DNA of 24,000 bases, taken from the NCBI GenBank assembly GCA_027024305.1, contig JALVSO010000027.1, positions 1,959 through 25,958 on the forward strand, in the 5' to 3' direction. Position numbers and translations under genes: made by a program. A model generated the notes under the pieces. That model ran no database searches. It was not told the origin of the DNA and saw only the letters and a program-made list of their open reading frames with translations. How positions within the stretch are numbered: the first letter of the stretch is position 1; each line of letters begins with the position of its first letter. This document shows, piece by piece, positions 8,851-24,000 of this stretch. Source of the stretch: Candidatus Parcubacteria bacterium. Its GTDB lineage: Bacteria; Patescibacteriota; Minisyncoccia; Phycocordibacterales; GCA-2747955.

Positions 8851-8856
8851 GTTTTA

Positions 8857-9697: not shown

Positions 9698-9724
9698 AAC
9701 ACCGAGGTCTTGCCTCGGTGTTTT
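9698..9724. repeat. conserved hairpin AAACACCGAGGtcttgCCTCGGTGTTTT, copy 2 of 2
   Basis: Identical to 4041-4070. It again lies between divergently oriented gene starts (9652 minus, 9749 plus). Confidence 0.7.
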
Positions 9725-9748
9725 ATGATTTTGTGTTACAATTCCCCT

Positions 9749-10129
9749 ATGAAAGATTTTGATTCTTGAAATGATATAAAGAAGAAAACCGAAGATGAGA
9801 AATTTCGATTTTATAAGGTTAGGGAGGTCTGGTGATGTCGTTTCGGTCTTAATATTGGTACGGAGATGAATGGTAAAGGTGAATGATTTGTACGTCCCGT
9901 TGTTGTCTTAAAAAGTTTTGGGAAGAATGCTTGTTTGGTGGTTCCTTTAACGACATCAGAAAAAGAGCACGATATGAGAATAGATATTGGTCTCATTGAT
10001 GGGAAAAAAGCAAAAGCCAATATATCCCAGATAAGGGTAGTGGATACGAAGAGATTTGAAGAAAAAATATCTTTTTTATCAAAAACCGAGTTTTCCAAAT
10101 TAAAAAAAATCGTTAAAGAATTATTTTAA
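9749..10129 (+). CDS. MazF/PemK-family toxin-like protein (126 aa if TGA is sense)
   Basis: ATG at 9749 is in frame with tracked ORF 9935-10129, across TGA at 9767, 9833 and 9884. Sequence ...FYKVREVW[TGA]CRFGLNIGTEMNGKGE[TGA]FVRPVVVLKSF...LVVPLTTS...ANISQIRVVDTKRF matches the PemK-like pattern (EIWW..G.N.G.E..GK...RPVLVL...PLTS...QIR.ID..R). TAA stop. Confidence 0.8.
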
Positions 10130-10141
10130 CGATTTTTTTTT
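10102..10141 (+). terminator. intrinsic terminator overlapping the 3' end of the toxin gene
   Basis: ATCGTTAAA-gaattat-TTTAACGAT stem flanked by A8 and T9 runs. Confidence 0.65.
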
Positions 10142-10498
10142 GAAACTTTCTCCCCCTGTAAAATAGGGGGCGAGACCTAAGCCAACTATATTGGTAGTAT
10201 ATTATAAAGAAAAAAGAAAGTCAAATTTTTTAAAGCTTTATTGTTTATATTAAAATTTAATCTGTTAATAAGTTATAAGTCGCAAGTGATAATCACCTCT
10301 ATAGTAATTAGATAGATAGTGGTTGCCTTGGTAAAAAGTGAGGTAATGAATTAGAGAAACAGTTTAAATCACCATTATTTTAGCTGAGAATACTGTTTTT
10401 TTTCTTAAAATAATGCAATAATTAAGTATTTTTATGACAAAAAAATAGCTGAAATGTGTTGAAAAATAAGGGTTTTCTAAAAATAGACACAAAAAAGC

Positions 10499-10527
10499 TT
10501 GACAAATAAATCAAAATAGTATATAAT
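10499..10527 (+). promoter_or_regulatory. consensus sigma70 promoter (TTGACA, 17 nt, TATAAT)
   Basis: TTGACA at 10499-10504 and TATAAT at 10522-10527, exactly 17 nt apart, inside a 900-bp AT-rich ORF-free region. Confidence 0.6.
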
Positions 10528-10533
10528 GCGGTC

Positions 10534-10700
10534 AGATTTTGAAAGATTGGGAAAAATTATGAAGGAGAGAGCATAATTTTTCTGAGAAAAGGAAAGGCTT
10601 TGAGAGACAAATCCAAAAATGGATTTATCTCACAAGGTCTTTGTTGACCGACCTCGGTCAGTGAAGAAAGCACTCTCTCCACGGGAGTGCTTTCTTTTTC
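10534..10700 (+). ncRNA. candidate ~165-nt small RNA (consensus promoter to intrinsic terminator)
   Basis: Bounded by the promoter above and the terminator GAAAGCACTC-9 nt-GAGTGCTTTC plus T5 (10666-10699). It contains a perfect 11-bp hairpin GAAAAATTATG-aaggagagag-CATAATTTTTC with an SD-like loop. No credible ORF. Family not recognised. Confidence 0.4.
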
Positions 10701-10736
10701 CCAGAAAAATTATACTTCGGAAATTTCTCAATCTTT

Positions 10737-10846
10737 CATCGGTCTTTAAATAACATATTAATTTATGTTCCATGTAGTCAGGTGGGTAGGTTAATACGGG
10801 TCTTGGAACAGGACTGCGGAACGCTCCACCCTTCGGTTCAACCGAT
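10737..10846 (+). ncRNA. possible ~110-nt structured element closed by CATCGGT/ACCGATG
   Basis: Long-range complementarity 10737-10743/10840-10846. Internal pairings include G-U wobbles (GTAGTC/GACTGC, GGTGG/CCACC). The only ORF here is an implausible minus-strand one (10630-10851). Confidence 0.25.
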
Positions 10847-10864
10847 GACAAGGGCTACAAACCG

Positions 10865-10933
10865 TTTTGTAAAGAAACGGCTGGAATTAAAAAGTCTAAC
10901 CAACTTTTTAATTCCGGAAATTTCTTTACAAAA
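10865..10933. repeat. long two-tier inverted repeat (69 nt hairpin)
   Basis: TTTTGTAAAGAAA..CTGGAATTAAAAAGT-ctaacca-ACTTTTTAATTCCGG..TTTCTTTACAAAA. That is 13 + 15 bp of pairing with one G-U. Confidence 0.6.
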
Positions 10934-10982
10934 TTTGTAAAGAAAAATTCGTTTCTTTGACAAAGGTTTTAAAAAATACTTC

Positions 10983-11012
10983 TTAACTGAAATATTTTTT
11001 AAACAATATAAT
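10983..11012 (+). promoter_or_regulatory. putative promoter at the AT-rich/GC-rich transition (TTAACT, 18 nt, TATAAT)
   Basis: TATAAT at 11007-11012 and TTAACT at 10983-10988. It would start transcription ~11020, reading into the structured region and the hammerhead. Confidence 0.4.
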
Positions 11013-11019
11013 GTCAAAA

Positions 11020-11563
11020 TTTGTTAAAGATCCCCGGAAAAGAAGCCGGACTTGTCAGGTATGGTTCGGCGTGTGGTTGCTGACAAGTCCGGCTTCGTGA
11101 AAACTCCGGTCAGATCTTTGGCGGATTTTTGGAAAAAATATGGATTGCTTCCCTCCACATCCGTTCCTCTCGCAATGACGACCACCGGAGGTGGTCGTTG
11201 GGACGGCGACCTGCGGTCGCCGTCATTACGAGGAGCTCGCGACGAAGTAATCCATGCAGACATTCGTCACCGTTATGTATTTTTCAAGATACCCGGTTTG
11301 TCGGCAATCACACGCCTAACCATACCCAACAAACCGGGTATCAATTTTTTCCAAAAATCCGCCCCAGGGTGGAAACAAAATGGAGGCGATGACACTGCCA
11401 TTTTTGAAGCTAAACAAAAGGTTTTAGATTCAAAAATGGCAGTGGGGCTCGTAGAGAGCGGGGCTACCCCGGCGAGGTAAACAAACTCGTCCTTGGTGAA
11501 ATTCCAAACATTGCCTTCAAATACAGAGAAGTTCAGCGTGGTTCGTTGAGCTTCTCTGCCGTC
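11020..11563 (+). ncRNA. candidate ~540-nt highly structured RNA ending at the hammerhead cleavage site
   Basis: No plausible ORF (the tracked ORFs here are Arg/Pro-rich shadows). Perfect 17-bp hairpin at 11042-11058/11080-11096. 19-bp long-range helix GGCGGATTTTTGGAAAAAA (11120-11138) / TTTTTTCCAAAAATCCGCC (11345-11363) enclosing hairpins at 11178-11198 and 11202-11224. 14-bp hairpin GATACCCGGTTTGT/ACAAACCGGGTATC. 16-bp hairpin CACTGCCATTTTTGAA/TTCAAAAATGGCAGTG. Confidence 0.45.
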
Positions 11564-11609
11564 CCGGAGTGTGCGCTCCGGCTGATGAGTCCAAAAGGAC
11601 GAAACGGTA
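11557..11609 (+). ncRNA. type III hammerhead self-cleaving ribozyme
   Basis: UGCCGUC|CCGGAG-ugugcg-CUCCGG-CUGAUGA-GUCC-aaaa-GGAC-GAAA-CGGUA. The full catalytic core is present (CUGAUGA, GAAA, GUC cleavage triplet). Stem I is 6 bp with a closed loop and stem II is 4 bp with G10.1-C11.1. Stem III is open and 6 bp (ACGGUA/UGCCGU, one G-U). Predicted cleavage is between 11563 and 11564. Confidence 0.85.
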
Positions 11610-11810
11610 AAATTGTCACGGTATGACTGCGGGATAACGAGGAAGCGACGCGGAATGACGCTGAAAAGTCCACCCTGACAAAAATAACGAAGTCCGACTT
11701 CGTTGCCTGTTCCGAAGCGAGATTTTAGCGATAAATTCTTGTCGCTAAAATCTCGCTCTTCGGAGCGAAAAGGTTCCGGCGTGTATTCGCCGGGTAAATT
11801 TAACTGAAAA

Positions 11811-11881
11811 TCACCGAGGCAAATATCCCCTATAAGCTGAAGATTATCCTTCAGTGAAATGGGGAGAATAAGCCGAGGTGA
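11811..11881 (+). promoter_or_regulatory. three-tier stem-loop in the 5' UTR immediately upstream of the RBS of the next gene
   Basis: TCACC..GGC / GCC..GGTGA, TCCCC/GGGGA and CTGAAG-attatc-CTTCAG are nested. It ends 6-14 nt before the AGGAGAG RBS and ATG 11895, and it covers the alternative ATG at 11859. Confidence 0.4.
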
Positions 11882-11894
11882 TCAGGAGAGAAAG

Positions 11895-12272
11895 ATGGCC
11901 AAGGTCATCCGTATCTCCCGCCACCCGCTGGGTGGTGATCGGGAGGCGGCTCTCAAGGCCGCCTTCGGCGATGACGTGGAAATCGTCACCGTCGATGTTC
12001 CCTATGGGGACGACCCCGTTGCCACCGTCGGTCAGCTGATTGACCGGGAAGGGGATGTCGTGGCCGTTGAGGCCCAGGCGCCCTTTCCGGTGACCATGAA
12101 GCTGGTCGACGCGAACCGGAAGCTGGGTGTTAAGTTCGTCCGCGCCGAATTCAAGCGCGGTGCGGATGGACGGGCTGTTGTCGTTGGTCAAGACGACAAT
12201 GGTCGCGACATCCTGGCTTTCGATCGCTACGTGGAGTTGCGTCGTATCGTTATTGATACGGCGGAGCTCTAA
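11895..12272 (+). CDS. hypothetical protein (125 aa)
   Basis: ATG 11895 is preceded by CAGGAGAG. The tracked ORF starts at 11859, but that ATG lies inside the stem-loop without an RBS. Protein-like composition (MAKVIRISRHPLGGDREAALKAAFGDDVEIVTVDVPYGDDP...). TAA stop. Family not recognised. Confidence 0.65.
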   Translation: MAKVIRISRHPLGGDREAALKAAFGDDVEIVTVDVPYGDDPVATVGQLIDREGDVVAVEAQAPFPVTMKLVDANRKLGVKFVRAEFKRGADGRAVVVGQDDNGRDILAFDRYVELRRIVIDTAEL

Positions 12273-13430
12273 CGGGCGACCGGCCGGGTGGCGGCGGTAC
12301 CGGCAACGTCAAGCCGGGCGTGCAGCTATGCGCGGTGGTAACGGTGAGCAACGGCTCATCATTCCGAAAGCCGATAATGGCAAATAGTGGGGATTCCGCT
12401 CCCCTTGTAGCGGGATTGACTGGAGGAGGATAATCCGATGGACAATTAGTAGCGCCGAGTCCTGGCGCCATAACAGAAATGAGGACAGCCAAAAGTGAGT
12501 GGTTTCACTTTTGGTGACCCCGGGAGGAGGGCGGCTCCTCTCAGTCGTGCACTATGCACGCAACCGTCCGAGGCGGTTCCTCGGCATGGCCTTAGGGAGG
12601 ACCTATGGCTATTTAAAAAGGCGCCTGGAGACAGGGGCGCCCGATAAATACCACTCCCTCGGGGGCAGGACGAGTTCCGGGAGAAGGGGTGAGAAGTTGC
12701 TAGCCCCGGGATATGAGACCTGCCATCATATTCCGAAATCGAAGCAACTATTGGTTGACTCCCGAGCGTGGTTTGTTCGGGGGCTTTATTGAGTCGGTAA
12801 TTTTAGATTATCGGCTCATAGAGCAAGAGGGGGGGTTGCCTTTCTCCTCCCATTCAGTTTCAAGAAGTACGGATAACTTCTTGAACCTCCGGGTCGTGCT
12901 CGGAGTTTGAATAAAAATCGGTCGGCAAAGGATTGCCGACCGGTTAGAATGACTCGGAGAAGCTTAGTTGGTCGGGCTTCTCTTAAAAAAAGTTACCATG
13001 GGGCTTAATGGCTCCATGGTAACCGGACCAACCCTCCACATTGGAGGAAAATAGGGTGTTGTTTCCTTCACCCTCCCAATTCTGAGAGTCAAGGACTACT
13101 CTCAGGATCTTCGCAAGGCGGAGTTTGGGAAAGTTTTCCATAAAAGGAATTTATGGAAGACAAAGGAAACTCGGGCCCTTATAACCGGAGGGCCTTAAAG
13201 GTAGCCCCCGCCTTGGTTAGGCGGGGGTTAGGTTGCTCCCCCGAGATGGATTTCGGGGGCTTTATTGGGCAGATCTGTTTTACAGGTCTGTCCATAGAGA
13301 ATTGAACAAACTCTTTCACCTGACTTTCTCTTCTGCAAAGAAAGTCATTGAAGGGTGGAAGGGGTTAAATTTTAATAGGGCTCAGGCCCCTCCGCCGCGC
13401 TTTTTTCATGGGCGCGGAGCAGACGGAGCA
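12273..13430 (+). ncRNA. ~1.15-kb ORF-free, hairpin-dense region (candidate large structured RNA or array of small RNAs)
   Basis: At least 9 perfect 7-10-bp hairpins: 12489-12514, 12860-12884, 12919-12942, 12992-13023, 13082-13105, 13205-13227, 13238-13259, ~13321-13347. Two are terminator-like units ending ...TTCGGGGGCTTTATTG (12758-12795, 13238-13269). The tracked ORFs here have non-protein-like composition. Strand is assumed from the neighbouring genes. Confidence 0.4.
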
Positions 13431-13447
13431 CCTTAAGGAGGTGAAAC

Positions 13448-13687
13448 ATGAATGAAGACAAAAAAAAAGAGGTGGAGTGGGTCTTGGCCAACTTCACCAA
13501 GGAGGAGGTCCTCGGGGAAATCGAGGATCTGGAAAGGCGAATCCCACTTGAGTGGGAGGACGCTAATGATGCATATTCCGAGCCCTGTGCGGGCGCGGAA
13601 TCGAACTATTATTCAATAGTTCGAGGAATCGACGAAATGGAGGAGCGCCTGGAAGCGTTCCGGGAAGCATATAGGCTCCTCCAGTAG
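13448..13687 (+). CDS. small acidic hypothetical protein (79 aa)
   Basis: Strong RBS AAGGAGGTGA 7 nt upstream of the ATG. TAG stop, followed by an intrinsic terminator. Confidence 0.65.
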   Translation: MNEDKKKEVEWVLANFTKEEVLGEIEDLERRIPLEWEDANDAYSEPCAGAESNYYSIVRGIDEMEERLEAFREAYRLLQ

Positions 13688-13708
13688 ATTTAGATTCCTG
13701 TGCACATT

Positions 13709-13757
13709 TCCCGAGCGGTGGTGTTGTAGTGACATTACCCGCTCGGGACTTTTTTTG
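13709..13757 (+). terminator. intrinsic terminator, CCGAGCGG-hairpin family copy 1
   Basis: TCCCGAGCGG...CCGCTCGGGA 10-bp stem with an inner GTA/TAC helix, followed by CTTTTTTT. It is near-identical to 18115-18160. Confidence 0.8.
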
Positions 13758-13782
13758 AAAATTCAAAAATTTGAATTTTCAA
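13755..13782. promoter_or_regulatory. perfect 13-bp inverted repeat TTGAAAATTCAAA-aa-TTTGAATTTTCAA (operator-like)
   Basis: Exact palindrome read directly. It lies between the terminator and the module-end repeat. Confidence 0.4.
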
Positions 13783-13802
13783 AGAAGGGATTTCCGGGGA
13801 AC

Positions 13803-13875
13803 AAATCTTTTGCAACGTTTTTGAACGTCCCAGGGACGTACCGGAATTTGGATTTGAATCTGCCTAGAGTTTTTT
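13803..13875 (+). repeat. module-end repeat, copy A1 (short version)
   Basis: AAATCTT...TGAACGTCCCAGGGACGTACCGGAATTTGGATTTGAATCTGCCTAGAGTTTTTT. It shares the ACGTCCCAGGGACGT palindrome and the GATTTGAATCTGCYTAGAG+T-run tail with 22168-22320 and 23826-23978. GC content drops immediately after it. Confidence 0.75.
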
Positions 13876-13896
13876 AGAAATTTAAAAAAGAAAATT

Positions 13897-14088
13897 ATGA
13901 AAGAAATTATATTTATAACATCCATCATTTCAGGTCTCCTGATATTTTTTATCTTTATTTTCTCTTTGGATTTGGATGCCGGAATTATGGCTATTTTGGC
14001 AGCCTTTTTTGGTTCGGCCTATAACCGGTTATATCTTTTTCTAAATCATTTATTTAGAGAAAAACATCCGGAGAAAAGTGAGTTTTAA
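13897..14088 (+). CDS. possible small two-TM membrane protein (63 aa) in an AT-rich patch
   Basis: Intact ORF with hydrophobic segments (IIFITSIISGLLIFFIFIF, IMAILAAFFG). Weak RBS. Its AT-rich composition is unlike the flanking GC-rich blocks. Confidence 0.4.
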   Translation: MKEIIFITSIISGLLIFFIFIFSLDLDAGIMAILAAFFGSAYNRLYLFLNHLFREKHPEKSEF

Positions 14089-14126
14089 AATGTCTTTTGA
14101 AATGAAAACAGCTAGTCTTGCATTTT

Positions 14127-14174
14127 CCGAGCGGTATTTTGTTGACAAAACTTTGCCGACAAAATACCGCTCGG
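14127..14174. repeat. 16-bp perfect hairpin of the CCGAGCGG family (no T-run)
   Basis: CCGAGCGGTATTTTGT-16 nt-ACAAAATACCGCTCGG. Its outer arms are the same as the two terminators at 13709 and 18115. Confidence 0.6.
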
Positions 14175-14345
14175 GAGAGTGGTGAATTGGCTTTTGCAGA
14201 GCCCATCTTTAGTCTGAAAGCATAGCTGCAAAGAATATGCTTTCTGGGTGATCCGCGACCAACAAGACTGCGGGGAGTGCTAGGTTCTGAACTTCCAACA
14301 ATAGGAAGGAATGAAGCGCTCAAGCTCAAAATTCGGAGGTGAATA

Positions 14346-15458
14346 ATGAGCAAAAAAAACATTGCGGAGCTGGCTCCGCAAAAAAATGTGGCGGAAAAGA
14401 TTTCTCAGGCTCTGTCTGAGAATTTTATCCGCTCCGAGAGAGTTGCCCGTATTCTCGCCCTTGCGGTGGAATCGGGCAAAAATGTATTACTTTGGGGGCC
14501 GGGCGGACACGGCAAGTCCGAGATGGTGGAGCTTGCGCTCGCGCAAGTCGCCGACTCGGACGACGTGTTCGTCCAATCCTTTGGCGAGGGCATGGATGAG
14601 GCAACCCTTTGGGGTGGCCTTGATTTCCAGGCCCTCGAGTCGGAAAAGGTGCTTCGGTATTTTCCGGAGCAAAGCTTCCTTGCGAAGCCTTTTGCCGTCT
14701 TTGAGGAGATCTTTGACGCCCCGGCGTCGGTTCTCCTCGCCCTGAAGGATACCCTGACGGCGCGCAAGCTCCGCAAGGGTGGTCAACAATTTCCTATGGA
14801 AACCAAAGTGATCATCGCGATCACCAACAAGGATCCGGAGGAAATTTCTGACCTCGGCCCCGCCGCAGCTGCTCTGGTGGAGCGGTTCCCGCTCCAGCTC
14901 AATGTAGATTGGGACTCCTATGAGGCCCGGGACTACACCGAGCTGTTTGATAAGGTCGGATCTCGGCTCCCGGGGGCGGATCTCAACGGCACCCAGCGGG
15001 TGCTGGCGGAGATTATCGCCAAGGCTTCGGCCGATGGCGATATTATTTCACCCCGCACCGCGGTTCACGCCCTCGGCGTGGTCAAGACCGCGGCGGCCCT
15101 GCGAGGCTCAGACCGGGTGGAGAAGGAGGACCTGGTGGACCTCCAGTACCTGCCCGGCATGGAGGACCTGGCGGATAATATCCGTCAGGAGTTGGACGCC
15201 GCCTACGAGCGGGCCGAGGCAGAGCGCCGGCTGGTTGCGGCCGAGGATCGGTTGCGTGAACTGTTGGCGGAGCTCCACGACGCAACGACGCCAATCAAGG
15301 CACTCCAAGTTGCTCGCCGCCTGCAGTCTCTGCAGGACGACACCAGCAACCTGAAAGTGCCGGACGGTCTCACCGACCGGCGCAAAAACCTGCGCAACTC
15401 TATCAGCGAGAAGGTGCAAGCGGCGCAGGAGCTTGCCCTTCAAAACACCCGCATCTAG
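14346..15458 (+). CDS. MoxR/CobS-like AAA+ ATPase (370 aa)
   Basis: RBS GGAGGTGA. Walker A LLWGPGGHGKSE, Walker B-like AVFEEIFDA, and sensor-like IIAITNKD and ISPRTAV. C-terminal coiled-coil-like tail. TAG stop. Confidence 0.8.
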   Translation: MSKKNIAELAPQKNVAEKISQALSENFIRSERVARILALAVESGKNVLLWGPGGHGKSEMVELALAQVADSDDVFVQSFGEGMDEATLWGGLDFQALESEKVLRYFPEQSFLAKPFAVFEEIFDAPASVLLALKDTLTARKLRKGGQQFPMETKVIIAITNKDPEEISDLGPAAAALVERFPLQLNVDWDSYEARDYTELFDKVGSRLPGADLNGTQRVLAEIIAKASADGDIISPRTAVHALGVVKTAAALRGSDRVEKEDLVDLQYLPGMEDLADNIRQELDAAYERAEAERRLVAAEDRLRELLAELHDATTPIKALQVARRLQSLQDDTSNLKVPDGLTDRRKNLRNSISEKVQAAQELALQNTRI

Positions 15459-15473
15459 CGGGAGGAGGAAAAA

Positions 15474-16850
15474 ATGAACTTTACGTTCAGAACAACTCCT
15501 CCCGCTACCTATATCCCTCCGAACTCGGAGGAGATGCGGGAGGTCGCGGCTAAGGTCGGGCTGAAGGGATTCAGCCGCGACCTGGTCGCGGACCTGTGTA
15601 ACCTGGCGGCGGGGGGAGCAATCCAACCCCCGTCGGCGTATCGGGAAATCGTACACCGGCAGGTGGAGGAAAAGCTCCCTGCCCCCGATAGCGATGGCGA
15701 GTGGTCGGTTGGAGGTGGCTACACCAAAGACCGTCTGCAAGCTATCAATCACCGCCTGGAAAAAGCGATGAGATACCATCAGAATGTCTGCGATTTCTTG
15801 CAGACGGTGGACCTCAGCGCCTTTCCCGGCCGAAGCCCCCTTGAGCAGGCCATGAGCTTGCTCAAGCTGCTTTCCAAGCAGGAGGGTGGCTCCGGCGGCG
15901 GTGAGGGGGGCGAGCCCCTGCCCATCTTCCAGGACAATGATCGTCCGGAAGGTGTCGCCGAAAAACTCCATGAGACCATGGAGTTGGCGGAGTCGCTGGA
16001 CGAGACCGAGCAGGAGATGCTCGATCCGGATGGTGACTGGCAGGAGGATGCCGAGCAGGATGGACAGGAAACCGGCTCCTCGGGGCTTCAAGCCCTGAAG
16101 GTTGCCGAGGACCTGGTCGACGGGAGTGACAAGCGCGCCATGCTTGAGATTTCCCGTCAGCTTGACCAGTTTACCAAGCTGCAAGTGCGGCGACAAAAAC
16201 TGGTCAAGCCAGATCCTACCGGCGACGAAATCCGAACCCGGGGCATCAAGCATCTTGGAGAACTCGGCAGAGTCTCCAAAAGTGCTTGGGCCACCCGCCA
16301 ACAACAGCCGACGTACTTTTTGTACCAGGCTGTGACCGGTCAGCTCCCCGTTCGGGAGCGGGTGACCCGCCAGGAGAAGAAACAGGCGATCTTCATCCTG
16401 GTTGACGGCTCCGGGTCTATGGAGGGCCGCAAACACCACAAGGCCACGGGGGTGGTGATGAACCGCCTCAAGGCAGTGGTGGACGGCGACGCGGAGGTTT
16501 GGGTTTCGGTCTTTGACACCGAAATGTCCAATCCAATGCATGCCGGAAATGCGGAGGAGGCCCGGGAACTGATCAAACAGTTCCGTCATGGCAACTTCCG
16601 CGGCGGCGGCACCGACATCGCCAGCGCGGTGAAAGCCGCGCACGCCTTCATTGAGGAAAAGATGAAGGCGGGCGAGGCGCTTTGGAGACCGGAAGTGGTA
16701 GTCCTCACTGATGAGGACAGCTCCACGCAAGGTCTCCGCAAGTCTGAGGTCAAGGGCACTCGTGTCCACGGATTTGCAATCGAGCGCAAAAACAAGCCGC
16801 TGGTGACTTTTGCCAAGTCAACCGGCGGCGTGGGGATTGAAAACTTTTAG
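15474..16850 (+). CDS. von Willebrand factor A (vWA/MIDAS) domain protein (458 aa)
   Basis: RBS GGAGGAGG. It starts 15 nt after the AAA+ gene. C-terminal vWA domain with the MIDAS motif ILVDGSGSM plus GGGTDI and VVVLTDED. Acidic linker. TAG stop. Confidence 0.8.
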   Translation: MNFTFRTTPPATYIPPNSEEMREVAAKVGLKGFSRDLVADLCNLAAGGAIQPPSAYREIVHRQVEEKLPAPDSDGEWSVGGGYTKDRLQAINHRLEKAMRYHQNVCDFLQTVDLSAFPGRSPLEQAMSLLKLLSKQEGGSGGGEGGEPLPIFQDNDRPEGVAEKLHETMELAESLDETEQEMLDPDGDWQEDAEQDGQETGSSGLQALKVAEDLVDGSDKRAMLEISRQLDQFTKLQVRRQKLVKPDPTGDEIRTRGIKHLGELGRVSKSAWATRQQQPTYFLYQAVTGQLPVRERVTRQEKKQAIFILVDGSGSMEGRKHHKATGVVMNRLKAVVDGDAEVWVSVFDTEMSNPMHAGNAEEARELIKQFRHGNFRGGGTDIASAVKAAHAFIEEKMKAGEALWRPEVVVLTDEDSSTQGLRKSEVKGTRVHGFAIERKNKPLVTFAKSTGGVGIENF

Positions 16851-16874
16851 TTGAATATCCTCTGGTTATTTTCT

Positions 16875-16920
16875 GTGAAACTTGGCTTGGTGTGGTGCCA
16901 AGTCAAGTTTCACTTCTTTA
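16875..16920 (+). terminator. probable terminator after the vWA gene
   Basis: GTGAAACTTGGCTTGG-tgtggtg-CCAAGTCAAGTTTCAC (16 bp, one G-U) followed by the U-rich TTCTTTAT. Confidence 0.55.
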
Positions 16921-16970
16921 TCAAGCATCCAAAATGGTTTGGGTGCTTGTAGAGAAAAGGAGGTGAAAAA

Positions 16971-17012
16971 ATGAAAAATCGGGATCCTCCGATGATGCCC
17001 GAACTCGGCTAG
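16971..17012 (+). CDS. possible 13-codon micro-ORF (MKNRDPPMMPELG) with a very strong RBS
   Basis: AAGGAGGTGA lies 6 nt upstream of the ATG and the ORF ends in TAG. It sits at the start of a 0.7-kb non-coding region. It could be a leader peptide or coincidental. Confidence 0.25.
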   Translation: MKNRDPPMMPELG

Positions 17013-17564
17013 GGCTAAAACACTCTGAGGCCGACGGTTGGGCCGAGACACCGTTGGGGCGATGTTCCTGCCGATGGAGCCCGTTTCAGTATATTTCAAG
17101 ACCGGAGAGCTGCTGACTCTTTGATGGCTTGGGATATGGTAAAGCTGAATGGCCGGGTGATGCCGGTAAAACAAACATCAACACGAAGCAATGGTTAGAG
17201 AACATCCAGCCAAGTGTATTGCCCGTGCAAAAAACGGGTGTATAAAAATCTCAACTCCGGTTTTCCCGGGGCGGCATGGTGTCGTAGATACGCAATGCGG
17301 CACTTAACCTCTTACTAACGGAGGATGGTTATGCGTATAAGGGACCCCCCTTAGGTTTTGGTCATTTTCATTCTAATAATTATTGGAGTGGAAATGACCT
17401 TGGATAGAGGAAGTGCTTGGTAGTGCTTCCTCTCTACTTTTGGGAATATAACTTTTAGGAGTTGTATTTCCAAGGAGTGGATTTTTCTCTTTTAGTGAAG
17501 CGGGATAGAGAGCCTGAAGTTTTTTGGGTTTTGTCTTCCGTTTCACTAATTTAGGGAGGGTAGT

Positions 17565-18107
17565 ATGGAATTTTTTTCTAAGGATGGAGGTGTTGTTGTT
17601 GTGCCGTGGGGCACACAGCAACACCTCCGCGCTCACCCGGACGTCTTGGATGTCCTGGGTGAGGCAATTTCAAAAATTGAACTCCCCACGGATGGGGAGT
17701 TTCTGAAAACGACCGTTGATCTGGGAAGGGTTATCGGTCGTTCCGGGGCGGTGGAGACCGACCCGATTCAATACGACGAGCAGACCTGGTTTGCCCATCG
17801 TATTGGGCGGGACGGACCTTCACGTGTTGTTTTGGACACGGAAGGTCCGGAGGTTTCCACCGTTGCGATCCTGGCGTTCCAAGCCAGGGATCGCAGCACC
17901 GGGAAAATCCAGCCGGGCAAGTACATCCTTGCTACGGCATGGATCGGCTCGGCGGAGGCCGAGCGAGAGCCCTGGGACAAGGGCATAAAAACAGAGCGGG
18001 AGCGCCAAGCCGCACTGCGGTATTGGTGCTCCCATGCTCTGGTCTATGACAAGGAGGTCATGGACAAGCCCTTCCAATCTTCATGGAAGGAGATTTTGGA
18101 AGGGTGA
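17565..18107 (+). CDS. hypothetical protein (180 aa)
   Basis: RBS GGGAGGG. Globular-looking composition. Apparent TGA stop followed by an intrinsic terminator. Family not recognised; the N-terminal HLRAHPD is only a weak hint of a nuclease-type His motif. Confidence 0.65.
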   Translation: MEFFSKDGGVVVVPWGTQQHLRAHPDVLDVLGEAISKIELPTDGEFLKTTVDLGRVIGRSGAVETDPIQYDEQTWFAHRIGRDGPSRVVLDTEGPEVSTVAILAFQARDRSTGKIQPGKYILATAWIGSAEAEREPWDKGIKTERERQAALRYWCSHALVYDKEVMDKPFQSSWKEILEG

Positions 18108-18114
18108 ATCTTTT

Positions 18115-18160
18115 TCCCGAGCGGTGGTGTTGTGGTGACATCACACGCTCGGGACTTTTA
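18115..18160 (+). terminator. intrinsic terminator, CCGAGCGG-hairpin family copy 2
   Basis: TCCCGAGCGG...CGCTCGGGA followed by CTTTTATT. The inner helix GTG/CAC covaries with GTA/TAC in copy 1. Confidence 0.75.
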
Positions 18161-18206
18161 TTGTGCCGGTAACTTTCCAAGTTACGGGCACATAGAAGTT
18201 TTTCAT

Positions 18207-18324
18207 TTTTTTTCACGGACTCCCTTGTCCGTTCAATTGTGCCGGTGATGAACCGGAAGTCCTACGGGGCGCGAACAGACAAGGGGCTTGCCGAAAGGTG
18301 AGTGTTCTGTTCGTGGAGAGAGAA
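18207..18324 (+). promoter_or_regulatory. structured 5' leader, copy 1 of 2
   Basis: ~95% identical to 19042-19159. It contains ACGGAC-tccctt-GTCCGT, CCGG-tgatgaa-CCGG, and GAACAGA...[CUUGCC-GAAA-GGUGAG]...UCUGUUC, then the GGAGAGAG RBS. Confidence 0.6.
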
Positions 18325-19041
18325 ATGAAGGCGTTGGAAAAAATCAACATCGCCGCGCCGTTTGTTTTCGCTGCAGTGGAGTCGATTACCCTGATAGAGC
18401 CCTCTATTTGGAGGGCGAATGCCGACATCCGTTTTTATATGGATATCTGGTATTCGATTTGGGTGGTCAGTGTTGGGATGCAATACGCTCCGAAATGGGC
18501 GATTGCATTTCTTACATGGTCTCTATTGCCACCGCTCCTCGGTGTGTACGAGGGGGCGAGGTACGAAAACGCATCCGATGCATTTTTGCGCCTTGATGCG
18601 TTGATTTGCGTAGGGTTTTTGCTCTACGAAATAGCAATCATAGAGGTTGCCCATCACCACTTTGAAAAAGTTTTTGGATGGCTCCTGCCGTCCAAATATG
18701 AGGTGGTGGAGCGCATCGGTGTATCATGGATGATCCGGTGTTACAAGGAGTTGTATCGCCAAATGGCGCGATGGTGGAAGGTTGGAGGAAATCATGGATT
18801 GATGATTCTTTGCGCCTTAAGTTTTGCCAAATTCTTTGGTAACTCGGGACAAAAAAGAGGGAATTTGCTTCTCCACGAGATTGAGACCAGTGAAGTCTCA
18901 GTTCGTATCGCCGACAATGGAGATATAGTTTTGTCGGCAAGCAAGCGGACCCTAGACGTCGCAACCATTGCGATACGAAAGGCGGAGGAAGGCGGATTAA
19001 GCGCCGCCGTTGAATTCCTCCATTCGCACGCGGAAGTTTGA
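18325..19041 (+). CDS. hypothetical membrane protein (238 aa)
   Basis: ATG 18325 follows the GGAGAGAG RBS; the tracked start at 18298 lies inside the repeated leader. Several hydrophobic, Trp-rich segments. Apparent TGA stop at 19039-19041. Confidence 0.65.
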   Translation: MKALEKINIAAPFVFAAVESITLIEPSIWRANADIRFYMDIWYSIWVVSVGMQYAPKWAIAFLTWSLLPPLLGVYEGARYENASDAFLRLDALICVGFLLYEIAIIEVAHHHFEKVFGWLLPSKYEVVERIGVSWMIRCYKELYRQMARWWKVGGNHGLMILCALSFAKFFGNSGQKRGNLLLHEIETSEVSVRIADNGDIVLSASKRTLDVATIAIRKAEEGGLSAAVEFLHSHAEV

Positions 19042-19159
19042 TTTTTTTCACGGACTCCCTTGTCCGTTCAGCTTTGCTGGTGATGAGCCGGAAGTCCTGC
19101 GGGGCGCGAACAGACAAGGGGCTTGCCGAAAGGTGAGTGTTCTGTTCGTGGAGAGAGAA
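19042..19159 (+). promoter_or_regulatory. structured 5' leader, copy 2 of 2
   Basis: It starts immediately after the preceding stop codon. About 6 substitutions relative to copy 1, including CCGG>CTGG, which keeps pairing as G-U. Confidence 0.6.
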
Positions 19160-22100
19160 ATGAGCAACAAAAAGTTGCCGGTCGCGGAGTTCCGCGAGCA
19201 AATCGTTTCAACCGTTGCCTCTAATCCGGTAACGGTCATTACAGCTGAGACCGGCGCGGGCAAGTCCACGCAGGTGCCTCAGTACCTGCTGGACGAGGGT
19301 TACAACATCGTTGTGACCCAACCCCGGCGGTTGGCTGCTCGGACTGTTGCCGAGCGCGTGGCCGAGGAATACGGTTGCGAGTTTGGCGATATCGTTGGCT
19401 TCCGCACCGCCCATGACCGCCAGGACAGCGACAACACCCGTTGTCTTTTTGTCACGGATGGTCTGGCGCTGGTGCGTGAGCTTATGGGTGCCGGCACCCA
19501 CGACTGCCTGATTCTTGATGAGGTTCACGAGTGGAACCTCAATATTGAGGTACTCGTGGCGTGGGTGAAGAAGCAGGTCGCCCGGAATCCCAAATTCAAA
19601 GTGGTGCTGATGAGTGCCACTTTGGAGGCGGAGAAGTTGGCGAGCTTCTTTGGCGGTGCGCCCATCATTGAGGTGCCGGGACGTACCTTCCCCGTGGAGG
19701 AGCGCAAAGTCGGTGAAAGCCTGCACGACGACATTGTTGAGCTTGCTCGGCAGGGTCGAAATGTGCTGGTTTTCCAGCCCGGCAAGGCAGAAATTGAGGA
19801 AACCGTCAGGTACCTTGAAAATCTGCCGGACCTGGACGCCAGGGTTTTGCCGCTTCACGGTGGCTTGACCAAGGAGCAGCAGGCGGCGTGCTTCAAAAAC
19901 TATCACCAACCGAAGATTGTCGTCAGCACCAATGTCGCGCAGACATCGGTGACCATTGATGACATTATTGCGGTTGTTGATTCCGGGATGGAGCGCCGGG
20001 TGGAGCTGGTGGACGGGGTTGAGGGCTTGTACCTGCGCCCCATTTCACTGGCCGATGCCAAGCAGCGCCGGGGGCGTGCCGGCAGGACCAAGCCGGGGAT
20101 TTATATCGATCACTGCCCGGCCAAGCCGGAAGATCGGCGTGAGTTCCCGATGGCGGAAATCCTGCGGGTGCGCCTGGACCAAACCGTTCTCCGTTTGGCT
20201 ATGGCTGGCTTTGATATGGAGGAGCTTCGGTTCTTCCATCAGCCCAATATTGCTGAAATCCATGAGGCCAAGCGTGCTCTGCATGCTCTGGGTTGCATGG
20301 ATGAGAACGGGAAGGTTACGGAGGTTGGTCGCGCTGTTTCCCGTTTGCCGGTCTCCGTTCAGTATGGGCGGATGATTGTGGAAGCGGAGAAGCTCGGGGT
20401 TGTGGGCGATGTTATCAAGATCGCCGCAATTCTGGAGCAGGACGGCATCACCGCCCGCAAGGTCAAATTGGATGACCGCTGGGTGGAGGCTAAGCCTCTG
20501 TGGCTGCCGCTGACCAACGGGGAGAAGGAGTCGGACGCTCTGGCTCAGCTCAATGTGTATGAAAATGCACAGAGCATGAGCAAGTCCCAGATGTATGAGT
20601 CTGGGGTCTTCGTGAAGGACTTTTATTTCGCGAAGGAGCGAGTTCGCCTCCTGAAAAAAGCGCTGGAAAGGAGGGTTCGTCATATGGACTCAACCGGAAA
20701 GCGCGAGGACATTCTCCGGGCGGTTCTTGCCGGGATGGTGGATCACTTGTATAAGTATAATTACGGTGATTACCAAAACGGCGATGGGGTCAACCGCCGG
20801 ATCAACAAGGATTCCGTTGTATCTGGTGGCGACTGGATTGTCGGTAAACCCTTTGACCTGGAAATCAACGGTCGTTACGGACCGTTCACCATTAATTTGG
20901 TGACCATGGTCACAAAGGCGGACCCGATGATTCTGGCGGAAGTGGCACCCCAGCTGGTGACCATTGAAGCCGGTCTTTCTCCGCGATACAGTGTCGATCG
21001 AGGGTGTGTGGTATCTACCACAAAAACGCTCTTCAACGGCATGGTTATCAAGGAGGAGGAGGTTGATGACATCAACCATCCCGAAGCGTCGGCCATCCTG
21101 GATGAGCAGGCATGGAAGGAGTGGAAAGGTCCGGAGATTCTGGTTCCCGATTTCAGTTTGGCGGGTGAACTGCCGGCTGAAATTCCGGAAATCCGCGAGG
21201 AGGTCTATATCAAGTCGCGGGTGGATGGTCGTCCACTTTCTGCCTATGGGGTCGTTTATCATGACTCCTGGTCTGGTTGGAAAAGTAAGTGGACGCGGGA
21301 CCGGAAGGAGGCCGAAAGTCTCCACGAGCAAGCCGAGAAGAAGCTTGCCGAACTCCGGAAACAAAAAGCCGTCCGCGACTGTATTGAGCGCGAGCTTGAT
21401 GCGGTCAACCGTCGCCGGGAGGCGATCGGTTTGTCTCCGATTAAAATGCGGGATTCCGGTTTTTCTCACAACGGTTGGTCGCGAGACTATACCGAGGAGA
21501 AGTGGGAGAAGGTATTGCAGGAGACGGCGGATAAGGAAGCCGAGGCGGCTGCTGAGCGGGCCCGGGCCGAGAAGGAAGCCAAGGAGGCACGCCTCATTGA
21601 GGAAGGTGCCTTTACCGGTTTCACCGGGGTCTGGTGCCGTCGTAGTGGCTCCAACCAGGGTGATGGCTGGGTCATTCGTCCGGGCGGTTCTTTTCGGGAG
21701 CACGACTCCATTGATAACCCTCGTCCGCGTTACAAGAGTGAAGGGTATAAGTCGTGGAATGTTGTGCGCCCGGATGAACTGGCCATTTCCTGGCGGAAGC
21801 ATACCCGGGCCTCCGAACACGAGTTCGAAGTTGCTCATCTGCCGGAGTCTTTGACTGCCGAGCAGGTGAAGGCGATGGAGACTCTGCTGGAAGAACTGGA
21901 GGAGGCTTGGGACGGCGCCACCGGCCTGGCTTCGGGCAAGAAGAGCCCGAGCGTTGGTGAGGGTTGGGTTAACCCTGAGACGGGCGAAAGTCTGACCAAG
22001 GGGTTCCGGACCTCTCGTCAAAAGCGGGAGGGTTCCGAGGCTAGCTGGACCGGAAAGGCCGGAGGGGTTGAAGAGGAGACCAACTCCGTTGTTTATGAGA

Positions 22101-22162
22101 CGGGAGAGGTTGATTTCAATAATCCCTTCGCCGCTCTGGCCGCCCTGAAGGGGAAACTCTGA
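19160..22162 (+). CDS. DEAH/RHA-family (HrpA/HrpB/DHX-like) helicase with a long uncharacterised C-terminal extension (1000 aa)
   Basis: ATG 19160 follows the GGAGAGAG RBS; the tracked start at 19010 runs through the leader repeat. Motifs: TAETGAGKST, ILDEVHE, SAT, TNVAQTSVTIDD, QRRGRAGR. These are followed by HA2/ratchet-like and OB-like regions (WIVGKPFD...MVTKADPMILAEVAP). About 380 aa follow with a Lys/Glu/Ala coiled-coil and no family I recognise. Apparent TGA stop. Confidence 0.85.
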   Translation: MSNKKLPVAEFREQIVSTVASNPVTVITAETGAGKSTQVPQYLLDEGYNIVVTQPRRLAARTVAERVAEEYGCEFGDIVGFRTAHDRQDSDNTRCLFVTDGLALVRELMGAGTHDCLILDEVHEWNLNIEVLVAWVKKQVARNPKFKVVLMSATLEAEKLASFFGGAPIIEVPGRTFPVEERKVGESLHDDIVELARQGRNVLVFQPGKAEIEETVRYLENLPDLDARVLPLHGGLTKEQQAACFKNYHQPKIVVSTNVAQTSVTIDDIIAVVDSGMERRVELVDGVEGLYLRPISLADAKQRRGRAGRTKPGIYIDHCPAKPEDRREFPMAEILRVRLDQTVLRLAMAGFDMEELRFFHQPNIAEIHEAKRALHALGCMDENGKVTEVGRAVSRLPVSVQYGRMIVEAEKLGVVGDVIKIAAILEQDGITARKVKLDDRWVEAKPLWLPLTNGEKESDALAQLNVYENAQSMSKSQMYESGVFVKDFYFAKERVRLLKKALERRVRHMDSTGKREDILRAVLAGMVDHLYKYNYGDYQNGDGVNRRINKDSVVSGGDWIVGKPFDLEINGRYGPFTINLVTMVTKADPMILAEVAPQLVTIEAGLSPRYSVDRGCVVSTTKTLFNGMVIKEEEVDDINHPEASAILDEQAWKEWKGPEILVPDFSLAGELPAEIPEIREEVYIKSRVDGRPLSAYGVVYHDSWSGWKSKWTRDRKEAESLHEQAEKKLAELRKQKAVRDCIERELDAVNRRREAIGLSPIKMRDSGFSHNGWSRDYTEEKWEKVLQETADKEAEAAAERARAEKEAKEARLIEEGAFTGFTGVWCRRSGSNQGDGWVIRPGGSFREHDSIDNPRPRYKSEGYKSWNVVRPDELAISWRKHTRASEHEFEVAHLPESLTAEQVKAMETLLEELEEAWDGATGLASGKKSPSVGEGWVNPETGESLTKGFRTSRQKREGSEASWTGKAGGVEEETNSVVYETGEVDFNNPFAALAALKGKL

Positions 22163-22167
22163 GGGGT

Positions 22168-22320
22168 GGATTTGGGAGGAGGTGTTGGTTACACCTTCCT
22201 CCCTCCGGCTGTCATTTCTGGCAGCCGGGCTTTATAGCGGGTTTAAATCTTCTGAACGTCCCAGGGACGTACCGAACCCAGGGACGTACCGGATTTGAAT
22301 CTGCTTAGAGTTTTTTTGGA
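22168..22320 (+). repeat. module-end repeat, copy A2 (153 bp)
   Basis: It differs from 23826-23978 at only 2 positions. Layout: hairpin GGGAGGAGGTGT-tggtt-ACACCTTCCTCCC, hairpin CCGGCTG..CAGCCGG, then ACGTCCCAGGGACGT with a tandem duplication of CCCAGGGACGTACCG, then GATTTGAATCTGCTTAGAG plus T7. Confidence 0.85.
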
Positions 22321-22531
22321 AGATTTTAGGGAATAATTTTATAAGAATTTTAAAAGTAAATTAGTATTTCCCTCTTTGTATTTTTAGGAATATAAAGAGG
22401 GGGTTGTTAATACCCTCGTGCGTCTTAGCCGTTTAGGCTGTGCTCGACGCACAGCCCATGCAGAGGCATGGGTTAATTATGTGCCTGCGGGGATAGCCTT
22501 CATGGCTTGAAACGCGGGTGGAGGTCCTGAA

Positions 22532-23371
22532 ATGGACAAAAAAAACAAGGCGGCGACTGCCTCTAAAGTCGCAAAAAATCTGGTATTTTTTCTTGGTGGT
22601 GCCGACGCAGAGATGCGTCGCATCGCCGAGGTGCTGGCAGAGGCCGGCATTGAATACCATGACGCCGGCCTGGGCTGGGGCGCTGCCGCCTCGGCCTACG
22701 GTGACGCCATCGCCGAGGCCTCCGGCGCCGGCAAGACGCCGGTGCTGGTGGAGTTGGAGGTCGACTGCGACCTGCCCGAGGGGGTGGTCGTGGTTGACCA
22801 CCATGGAGATCGTGCCGGCGAGCCGCCGGCCATTCTGCAGGTTCTCAACCTGCTCGGCAGGGAGCCGAGTCGGTGGGACCTGCTGGTGGCGGCCAACGAT
22901 GCCGGGTGGTTTCCCGGTCTCGTTGGTGAGGCGGAGATCCCCGGTATGGGGCGTTTCTCCCCGCCGGCGACGGCGGAAGAGATGGCGGCGGTTCGTGCCA
23001 CTGACCGGGCCGCTCAGGGCATTACGCCTGAGCAGGAGCGGGAGGCGGAGCGGGCGCTGGCTGCCCTCGTTGAGGAGATTGGCGGCGTTCGGGTCATCCG
23101 GATGAGCCACTCCAAGACGGCACCGATTGGCGACCGCCTCGCCATTGATGCCCTCGCCTCCGGCCGGCCCATCCCGGCCTACCTCGTCCTCTCCGGGGAC
23201 GGGGAGGTGAACTTCTCGGGTGACGGTGCACTGGCCGCCGCCCTTCATGAGAAGTTCCCGGGTGGCTGGGCCGGCGGTGCCGGCCTCGGCAAGGTTGGGG
23301 GAAGCGCCTTTTGGGGCGGCTACCCCGACCACGAGGAGGCCCTCGCGTTCATTCGCGAGTATACCTCCTAA
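22532..23371 (+). CDS. hypothetical protein, weakly DHH-phosphoesterase-like (279 aa)
   Basis: RBS GGTGGAGG. It contains VVVDHHGD and a Gly-rich C-terminal segment (GGWAGGAGLGKVGGS). The assignment rests on short motifs only. TAA stop. Confidence 0.6.
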   Translation: MDKKNKAATASKVAKNLVFFLGGADAEMRRIAEVLAEAGIEYHDAGLGWGAAASAYGDAIAEASGAGKTPVLVELEVDCDLPEGVVVVDHHGDRAGEPPAILQVLNLLGREPSRWDLLVAANDAGWFPGLVGEAEIPGMGRFSPPATAEEMAAVRATDRAAQGITPEQEREAERALAALVEEIGGVRVIRMSHSKTAPIGDRLAIDALASGRPIPAYLVLSGDGEVNFSGDGALAAALHEKFPGGWAGGAGLGKVGGSAFWGGYPDHEEALAFIREYTS

Positions 23372-23604
23372 TCGAACTTCGCCACCGAGAGTGAAGTGAA
23401 ATAAAGTGCTCGGCCCGGTGCCTGCGTGGTGCAGGCGCCGGGAGGTTTGAGGCAAGCTTGGTTAAGTTTGCCTTTCTTATTCCGATTGCAAGGGTGTTTC
23501 TTTGCGGTCGGATAGGAAATTAGTCGCCGGGCTTTGTTGAGAGGTTCGGCAAAAATCAACTTTGCGGTGAGGGTAAAGACCCAACAATCCGCGGGAGACC
23601 AGCC

Positions 23605-23826
23605 ATGGCAGAAATATGCCATAATATAAAATGGGCACTAATCTGCCCATGGTCCTACGTCGTCATCCACCCGAACGGATACACCGTTCTGGTGGACAGG
23701 TACGAATGGAATCGTTTGGCAGAGGCCAAGGAAAGGGCCTATGAAGAGAACCAAAAAACCGATGCATATCTGCATCGGGTGTATGGGCCGTTTTGGCGCC
23801 CATATATTGATTCCAAAATATGTTAG
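23605..23826 (+). CDS. small Trp/Tyr-rich hypothetical protein (73 aa)
   Basis: Intact ORF with a GGGAGA RBS-like sequence. TAG stop, followed directly by repeat copy A3. Confidence 0.5.
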   Translation: MAEICHNIKWALICPWSYVVIHPNGYTVLVDRYEWNRLAEAKERAYEENQKTDAYLHRVYGPFWRPYIDSKIC

Positions 23827-23978
23827 GATTTGGGAGGGGGTGTTAGTTACACCTTCCTCCCTCCGGCTGTCATTTCTGGCAGCCGGGCTTTATAGCGGGT
23901 TTAAATCTTCTGAACGTCCCAGGGACGTACCGAACCCAGGGACGTACCGGATTTGAATCTGCTTAGAGTTTTTTTGGA
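23826..23978 (+). repeat. module-end repeat, copy A3 (153 bp)
   Basis: Near-identical to 22168-22320. AT-rich sequence resumes after the T-run. Confidence 0.85.
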
Positions 23979-24000
23979 GTTTTTAGAAAAACTTTTCTTG

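Follow-up and report, generated by a model that had tools for sequence, protein, structure and literature searches.

How does a block of genes that ends some of its reading frames with TGA come to lie in a chromosome that reads TGA as tryptophan? The question is raised by a stretch of 24,000 nucleotides (nt), here termed the window, from Candidatus Parcubacteria bacterium (assembly GCA_027024305.1, contig JALVSO010000027.1, positions 1,959 to 25,958 of the forward strand). The right half of the window carries a GC-rich gene block, the island, and the left half carries AT-rich host genes, the flank. The island is probably a recent, unameliorated horizontal acquisition from a GC-rich, standard-code, phage-linked gene pool (a probability of about three in four).

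The GC content is 0.372 at positions 1–11019 and 0.545 at positions 11020–23978, with the switch point between 11000 and 11040. The original prediction for this DNA described a jump to about 60% GC near 11.03 kb; the position agrees, but the average is slightly below 60%. The island gene bodies range from 0.47 to 0.67 GC, i.e. they are not uniformly at 60%, and there are two very AT-rich internal spacers (13876–14100, 0.28 GC, and 22321–22400, 0.21 GC). The GC content at third codon positions (GC3) is 0.53–0.77. The nine island open reading frames (ORFs) in the window comprise 2801 codons and display 0 in-frame TGA and 53 TGG codons, which matches the earlier count of about 2,800 codons with no in-frame TGA and TGG for every Trp. 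At the Trp codon usage of the flank, the chance of 53 consecutive TGG codons is (15/42)^53, or ~2e-24, a figure that is confounded by GC content. The island was first taken to end at position 23978. This needs correction, as a fourth GC-rich module on an overlapping scaffold (L050) carries it to ~25.2 kb. In window coordinates the true extent is thus ~11.03 to 25.2 kb, a length of ~14.2 kb, which is made up of four transcription-unit-like modules (A–D) with short AT-rich spacers between them.

Three island genes end in TGA, exactly at the positions originally given: orf180 (18105–18107), a predicted membrane protein gene, mem238 (19039–19041), and a DEAH/HrpA-like helicase gene (22160–22162). 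A terminator or a leader had been proposed behind each stop, and such elements are present, i.e. a terminator hairpin at 18113–18163 beyond orf180, the 122-nt leader of the helicase gene (19042–19163) beyond mem238, and hairpins at 22168–22320 beyond the helicase gene. The helicase TGA is at the C-terminus of the family: NPFAALAALKGKL aligns with the ends of the homologues P0002 and P0003, and the helicase relatives stop one residue later, at ...LKGKLG. Most of the 569 representative homologues of orf180 match the query to residue 176–180. With both C-termini conserved in their families, the TGA stops of the island are taken as ancestral. The closest helicase relative (L003, 80% identity) is also TGA-terminated. 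Evolution under the standard code would explain why these genes use TGG alone for Trp and why three of them stop at TGA.

The host presumably reads the three TGA stops as Trp. Translation with table 4 then predicts the extended products that the original prediction had anticipated, with 245, 61 and 25 residues added to orf180, mem238 and the helicase, respectively; the helicase extension includes the predicted peptide WGVDLGGGVGYTF.

The assignment of TGA to Trp in the flank is made because of homology of PheT, the phenylalanyl-tRNA synthetase beta chain, and not from ORF length alone. The flank encodes PheT, a membrane protein, orf255, a PIF1-type helicase, orf929, a TrmB-family regulator and a PemK/MazF-type toxin. 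These seven genes (3170 codons, GC3 0.28–0.48) display 27 in-frame TGA codons against 15 TGG, i.e. 64% of host Trp codons are TGA (27/42), and 0 of the 7 stop at TGA. Coverage of the left 10.4 kb by ORFs of at least 150 amino acids (aa) rises from 0.50 under table 11 to 0.94 under table 4. In an alignment of PheT with standard-code homologues (P0131, P0132, P0136, P0144 and P0158), the host TGA at position 545 corresponds to an invariant Trp (5/5 homologues). Trp is found in 4/5 homologues at position 7 and in 4/5 at position 150, and at position 476 the homologues have aromatic residues. The flanking genome is thus predicted from homology to use table 4. Neither a tRNA-Trp gene with a UCA anticodon nor a release factor 2 gene is present in the window or the fetched flanks. 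A reading of TGA as Gly (table 25, as in Gracilibacteria and SR1) was considered and ruled out, since TGA is aligned with conserved Trp or aromatic residues.

The top named PheT matches are from Pacebacteria, Campbellbacteria and the "Patescibacteria group", and by these matches the host is classed as a Patescibacterium. The nearest PheT relatives, in three loci of 27% GC (L051–L053), have 70–72% identity and in-frame TGA at the same PheT positions; these relatives are recoded too. The neighbours of their PheT genes differ from those in the window, and L051–L053 offer no syntenic or empty site with which the insertion site could be compared. In a 2026 preprint, reassignment of UGA to Trp is listed for four phyla only: Bacillota, Pseudomonadota, Verrucomicrobiota and Actinomycetota. 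Because these phyla exclude Patescibacteria, the host clade is notable on its own, and it may represent a candidate unreported case of TGA=Trp Patescibacteria.

The original prediction listed a chimeric assembly among its explanations, i.e. a GC-rich standard-code genome or episome could have been joined in silico, or mis-binned, to an AT-rich recoded genome. An abrupt compositional switch would be expected of such a join, and a 61-bp repeat that is present at both boundaries of the island could mislead assemblers: Logan contig L194, which covers positions 1–11068, stops inside the left copy, a hairpin whose 30-nt arm recurs at the right boundary. In addition, a gap of 100 Ns interrupts ENA scaffold_10730 (L050) near the right boundary and separates module D from the right-hand hairpin. 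Against this, two gap-free assemblies cross the left junction, the window contig and ENA scaffold_2665 (L001, no Ns). The latter corresponds to window positions 4346–18183 with 2 mismatches in 13.8 kb (both on the flank side), and thus runs through the junctions at 11.0 and 13.9–14.1 kb. The internal junctions also recur in Logan and ENA contigs: Logan contig L002 (SRR13622960) is an exact match to window positions 12635–18095, and scaffold_10730 is an exact match to 19109–24000, crosses the junctions at 22.3 and 23.98 kb and extends rightwards. The first 55 nt of scaffold_10730 are found in the upstream 122-nt leader copy as well (18274–18328), hence the ENA assembly broke at the leader repeat.

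Beyond the window, scaffold_10730 displays, in order, the orf321 module (module D, GC 0.52), AT-rich DNA with host-type repeats, an NTP-transferase gene, an MscS gene and a tRNA-Thr gene ~3.3 kb to the right of the island. The MscS gene has 2 in-frame TGA codons, so that recoded AT-rich genes are found on both sides of the island. Module D is joined gap-free to 180 nt of AT-rich sequence bearing a 20-mer of the left flank and repeats that resemble those beside the host tRNA-Thr gene. To produce a chimera, two or more false joins would have to have arisen independently at sequences common to two organisms, which is highly improbable. The GC-rich block is real chromosomal DNA of the host with recoded host genes on both sides.

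The relatives of the island genes point to where the DNA may have come from; relationships were judged by identity and locus comparison. The helicase has 7950 homologues, mostly in Patescibacteria and with thousands at 50–60% identity, and a helicase scan of GTDB representative genome contigs gives 45 relatives. The closest helicases (80, 71 and 69% identity) are in standard-code contigs of 46–61% GC (~50%). An orf279 relative with 82% identity is present in a sister sample. Homologous islands with in-frame TGA at Trp positions had been named as evidence that would tell against a standard-code origin; among 50 helicase-bearing loci, no TGA at a Trp position and no recoding was found. By identity, the closest relatives of the island appear to be outside the host's own clade, i.e. 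in standard-code sequence, whereas the relatives of the host itself are recoded and have 27% GC.

Parts of the gene neighborhood recur. Homologues of orf180 and orf279 are directly upstream of the helicase in several Patescibacteria. In locus L026 the order is hammerhead ribozyme, Csx3-AAA protein, orf180-like protein, MoxR, VWA and helicase, and L023 shows the same hammerhead-to-helicase stretch. The helicase cluster or orf279 is GC-richer than the flanks in L006, L013, L023, L025, L026, L049 and L056, e.g. 0.42 for the cluster against 0.31 for the flank in L023, and 0.64 against 0.33 in L056. This GC excess across unrelated Patescibacteria suggests either that the cluster often moves horizontally or that it is under a constraint of its own.

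The second of these leads to a different account of the island, in which a cluster that is long resident or repeatedly overwritten is GC-rich by gene-specific constraint or by recurrent gene conversion. The GC elevation of homologous clusters in many Patescibacteria would fit it, as would the intact state of all island ORFs and the recurrence of orf124, the hammerhead and a TrmB neighbour in locus L091. But 0/53 island Trp codons are TGA in a host with 64% TGA, and GC3 reaches 0.77. Three TGA stops are unadapted, one of them predicting a 245-aa extension, and no recoded homologue is found among the fetched loci. Long residence is therefore unlikely.

A link with phages is seen in L180, a 99-kb IMG/VR viral contig of 62% GC, where homologues of MoxR (55% identity), VWA (48%) and orf180 (49%) are colinear at positions 7860–11487. 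L180 also has matches to an endolysin and a DNA polymerase exonuclease. Relatives of orf180 are present in jumbo phages (CBB, GAP32 and Erwinia phages), where they sit in tRNA gene arrays next to an AAA ATPase, e.g. at positions 6001–6474 of L192. A search for MoxR in isolate phage genomes gave no match. The L180 homologues of MoxR, VWA and orf180 are all TGA-terminated, whereas MoxR and VWA end in TAG in the island; overall, TGA stops number 3/10 in the island against 6/9 in L180. The lower share in the island is a weak hint of adaptation, with too few genes to count as evidence.

The module ends have a structure of their own. Modules A, B and C share an end motif of ~60 nt (TTCTGAACGTCCCAGGGACGTACCG...GGATTTGAATCTGCYTAGAGTTTTTTT) at positions 13819–13878, 22250–22320 and 23908–23978, which carries small palindromes, and the last module, D, has only a degenerate end motif beside host DNA (L050 6100–6200). 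A 153-nt direct repeat (family D1) brackets module C, its copies at 22168–22320 and 23826–23978 being 99% identical. Module-end repeats and a bracketed module form a cassette-like arrangement without a recombinase.

These features bear on the possibility that the island is the integrated remnant of a standard-code phage infecting this host, or a code-agnostic array of cassettes with the module ends as recombination sites, and is either way adapted to function under both codes. The L180 synteny and PHROG matches, the conserved module-end repeats, the bracketing of module C and the difference in stop codons from L180 are all compatible with it, and such phages have been predicted for code-25 bacteria of the candidate phyla radiation (CPR) (PMC10746230). 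The island ORFs, however, include no capsid, tail, terminase, lysis, replication or integrase genes, and their PHROG matches are only to families of ATPases, helicases or unknown function. With three TGA stops still in place the array is not code-neutral, and the stop-usage difference rests on very few genes. The exact pattern of the leader core found no counterpart in the metagenome collection, and the search for the module-end repeat covered this island only. A phage remnant or code-agnostic array is thus a doubtful explanation. It is equally doubtful that a modular, recombinase-less cassette system circulates among Patescibacteria and their large phages whatever the code of the recipient, and that UGA, given the persistence of intact ORFs with TGA stops, is context-dependent here, as a stop in the island and as Trp in host genes. 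If true, the lineage would be a dual-meaning intermediate of UGA-to-Trp reassignment, apparently undescribed in the phylum.

The original prediction had looked to a matching left-end repeat. Repeats exist at the boundaries of the island, but they are inverted and host-type, and direct att-like (attachment site) repeats are not found. A 20-mer at 11008–11027 recurs inverted at the right boundary (L050 6143–6162, 100% identical), as does the 61-bp hairpin at 11039–11099 (L050 6415–6475, 97% identical). The hairpin is a member of a host repeat family whose copies share a conserved 21-nt loop (GTATGGTTCGGCGTGTGGTTG) but vary in their stems. Further copies are at 11283–11347 and L050 9490–9555, and one copy lies directly against the 5′ end of tRNA-Thr(CGT). 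The inverted repeats were rejected as transposon ends, as a target-site duplication is lacking, the order of the 20-mer and hairpin is not colinear between the two ends, and the hairpin belongs to the host family.

Recent acquisition from a standard-code donor had been one of the explanations first offered; for another, expression coupled to code differences, the evidence points neither way. Recent acquisition is favored by the relatives in standard-code sequence, the helicase contigs of ~50% GC, the L180 synteny and the family-conserved TGA termini. The source pool would be shared by other Patescibacteria and large phages, and the island would be too recent for amelioration. The vehicle may have been a phage, DNA uptake from a related bacterium, or recombination at host repeats.

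Several points weigh against recent acquisition. Searches of the island ORFs with Pfam, PHROGs and PADLOC, including the L050 extension, detected no integrase, recombinase or transposase; the original prediction had seen none in the window, and this still applies once the sequence is extended to the true right end. Neither a target-site duplication nor a direct att-like repeat is found over the whole island, the boundary repeats being inverted. A donor above ~80% amino-acid identity was not found. The island MoxR and VWA are only ~20% identical to the L026 pair, such that cluster conservation with L026 appears to hold at the level of architecture, and part of the GC contrast could be a property of the cluster and not of recency. 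The 100-N gap of scaffold_10730 and the end of Logan contig L194 inside the left hairpin also count here, and the read sets behind the three assemblies may not be independent.

The features of the window and its extension are collected in Table 1.

Table 1. Features of the flank and the island in window coordinates (L050 coordinates where marked).
Feature	Position	Strand	Remarks
Host flank	1–10400		AT-rich, TGA decoded as Trp (predicted)
Promoter-like site	10983–11012	+	TTAACT, 18 nt, TATAAT; faces into island, just before GC jump; consensus scan only
Left boundary repeats	11008–11099		20-mer, 61-bp hairpin
Type III hammerhead ribozyme motif	11556–11610	+	Rfam RF00008, full model
orf124	11898–12272	+	Function not assigned; GC3 0.70; stop TAA
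ORF-free 1.2 kb	12273–13447	+	Many near-perfect GC-rich hairpins, some followed by CUUUAUUG, terminator-like
orf79, small acidic protein	13448–13687	+	Stop TAG; gene also called on ENA and Logan contigs
End of module A	13707–13878	+	Terminator hairpin 13707–13757, then module-end motif TTTTGAACGTCCCAGGGACGTACCG...GGATTTGAATCTGCCTAGAGTTTTTT; repeat families D3, D4, D5
AT-rich spacer	13879–14100	+	28% GC; 63-aa hydrophobic ORF at 13897–14088
MoxR-type AAA+ ATPase	14346–15458	+	Stop TAG; Pfam bpMoxR 1.3e-13, AAA_5 1.4e-8
VWA-domain protein	15474–16850	+	Stop TAG; Pfam VWA_CoxE, VWA_2, VWA
orf180, uncharacterised family	17565–18107	+	Stop TGA; phrog_23674 2.8e-21
orf180 under table 4	new end 18842		+245 aa
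Terminator hairpin	18113–18163	+	92% identical to 13707–13757 copy; repeat family D4
Structured leader copy 1, upstream of mem238	18207–18328	+	Repeat family D2; model R1 140.6 bits
mem238, predicted membrane protein	18325–19041	+	Stop TGA; no family match
mem238 under table 4	new end 19224		+61 aa
Structured leader copy 2, upstream of helicase	19042–19163	+	
DEAH/HrpA-like helicase, 1000 aa	19160–22162	+	Stop TGA; Pfam DEAD, Helicase_C, HA2
Helicase under table 4	new end 22237		+25 aa
End of module B	22168–22320	+	Two hairpins and module-end motif; copy 1 of 153-nt direct repeat
AT-rich spacer	22321–22400	+	21% GC
orf279, NrN-like DHH-family phosphodiesterase (predicted)	22532–23371	+	Stop TAA
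orf73, small protein	23605–23826	+	Stop TAG; gene called on L050
End of module C	23826–23978	+	Copy 2 of 153-nt repeat
orf321, fourth module (D) beyond window	L050 5071–6036		Then AT-rich recoded host DNA

Module A (11.03–13.88 kb) begins with the hammerhead motif. Its score of 45.7 bits (E 1.8e-7) is below the gathering score of 48.5, but the cores CUGAUGAG and CGAAAC are intact, and the match, which takes in a GUC cleavage triplet, runs over the full model with the three helices of type III. The same core adjoins the homologous gene cluster in L023, L026, L062 and L116. As a marker of the cluster the motif was rejected: the identical core CTGATGAGTCCAAAAGGACGAAA is present in at least 120 metagenome stretches, with cluster genes nearby in only 6 of 120, and it is therefore not specific. 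An rRNA or other known RNA behind the GC rise was likewise rejected, as there is no Rfam match at gathering thresholds and ARAGORN detects no tRNA genes within the window; at relaxed thresholds only the hammerhead is credible.

Searches of orf124 against Pfam, PHROG and PADLOC gave no match. A homologue with 50% identity is found in L091 next to a hammerhead and a TrmB gene. On this Patescibacteria-like contig, positions 4225–5760 display the orf124 homologue and then the same hammerhead core, divergent to a TrmB-family gene. The resemblance to the TrmB...orf124 arrangement of the window is a weak hint of conserved synteny. The ORF-free region downstream of orf124 has folding z-scores of -3.2, -3.5, -9.3 and -6.7 in four consecutive pieces and no Rfam match. 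Its repeated unit consists of a hairpin, GCUUUAUUG, a second hairpin and CAUAGAG, and the second stems are unrelated in sequence.

Just to the left of the island, positions 10600–10935 form a GC-richer, structured stretch inside the AT-rich flank. It includes a 31-nt inverted repeat (10865–10933) without an Rfam match, which may be a small RNA or a terminator. Further into the flank, a near-identical terminator hairpin (AAACACCGAGGTCTTGCCTCGGTGTTTT) is found at two intergenic sites, 4042–4082 and 9697–9737.

In module B (14.1–22.3 kb), the VWA gene and orf180 are separated by a 715-nt ORF-free gap (16851–17564) with an 18-bp hairpin at 16875–16913 and other stem-loops. The orf180 family proteins are typically 165–190 aa. 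The predicted model of orf180 is confident (pLDDT, the predicted local distance difference test score, is 96.7), and it has no structural match in PDB or BFVD. The family alignment is too variable to derive search patterns for viral loci.

The 122-nt leader is kept upstream of the helicase in L003 (9962–10087), L004 (950–1084) and L059 (2194–2316). In an alignment of five sequences, 98.8% of cells are paired and 4 pairs show compensatory changes, and a long-range helix extends over the Shine-Dalgarno region. Rfam has no family for the leader, and model R1 matches only the two copies in the window and those of L003, L004 and L059. With five sequences only, the leader is a candidate cis-regulatory RNA.

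The orf279 protein of module C has a predicted model with a pLDDT of 95.5, which displays the DHH/DHHA1 fold with conserved residues D89, H90 and H91. The Foldseek match is to NrN (9lqa, E 7.5e-20, template modelling (TM) score 0.77–0.85, 27% identity), and the PADLOC matches are C3a116 (2.3e-54) and DHH_CorA (1.5e-32). The family is widespread in Patescibacteria and is without a Pfam model. From the model, orf279 is a structural homologue of NrN and a predicted phosphodiesterase.

The RNA helicase, the self-cleaving ribozyme motif, the nucleotide or nanoRNA phosphodiesterase and the MoxR-VWA pair, together with the Csx3-AAA protein of relatives, suggest a role of the cargo in conflict or repair, as a module centred on RNA or nucleotides. 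The hammerhead, MoxR, VWA, orf180, HrpA-like helicase, NrN-like phosphodiesterase and candidate leader RNA define a recurrent, uncharacterised neighborhood of Patescibacteria and phages.

Alternative codes are often proposed as firewalls against phages and horizontal transfer. As a recent acquisition, the island would be a chromosomal counter-example in an uncultivated Patescibacterium, i.e. ten intact standard-code genes in a TGA=Trp genome, three of them with stops that should be misread here. In such a lineage, what it costs to cross from one code to another would be directly measurable, as extension of products, decay of genes, and conversion of TGA to TAA or TAG across strains.

Compared with known systems, the island resembles genomic and defence islands in its abrupt GC contrast, its accessory or conflict-type genes and its placement between host genes and close to a tRNA gene. 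It differs from them in the lack of an integrase and of direct att repeats, in its inverted host-type boundary repeats and modular build, and in that donor and recipient codes differ. Integron cassette arrays likewise consist of serial modules of heterogeneous composition, and three of the island modules have a related structured end repeat. Unlike integron cassettes, the island modules are multigenic and have leaders and terminators of their own; no IntI integrase is found in the window or L050. Tn916 with tet(M) in Mycoplasma and Ureaplasma is also a standard-code mobile element in a TGA=Trp host. Tn916 moves as a conjugative transposon and encodes an integrase of its own, and the phylum of those hosts differs from that of the island's host.

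Two of the encoded functions can be compared with characterized systems. The adjacent MoxR and VWA genes and the bpMoxR match are shared with MoxR-VWA conflict systems (Pfam PF20030 bpMoxR, the MoxR-vWA-beta-propeller ternary system). No beta-propeller third component is found in the island ORFs, and, unlike in the ternary systems, the pair is linked to the orf180 family, a DEAH helicase, an NrN-like phosphodiesterase and a hammerhead motif. NrN is a DHH phosphodiesterase that degrades SAM-AMP (an S-adenosylmethionine-AMP conjugate) in CorA-type type III CRISPR systems (PMC10600005; PDB 9lq9-9lqc). The fold, the DHH residues and the C3a116 and DHH_CorA matches of orf279 are as in NrN, but there is no cas10 gene or CRISPR array near orf279, and no cas, CorA or CRISPR genes were detected in the window or L050.

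The closest precedent is the set of standard-code phages that Liu et al. (2023, mBio; PMC10746230) predicted to infect TGA-recoded CPR bacteria. Those phages are free genomes, linked to TGA=Gly hosts (Gracilibacteria and Absconditabacteria) by CRISPR spacers, and they mostly avoid TGA stops, whereas the island is integrated, has a host with TGA=Trp, keeps three TGA stops and carries no phage structural genes. In both cases, mobile DNA in the standard code is linked to a Patescibacterial host with recoded TGA, and genes free of TGA are translatable in either code.

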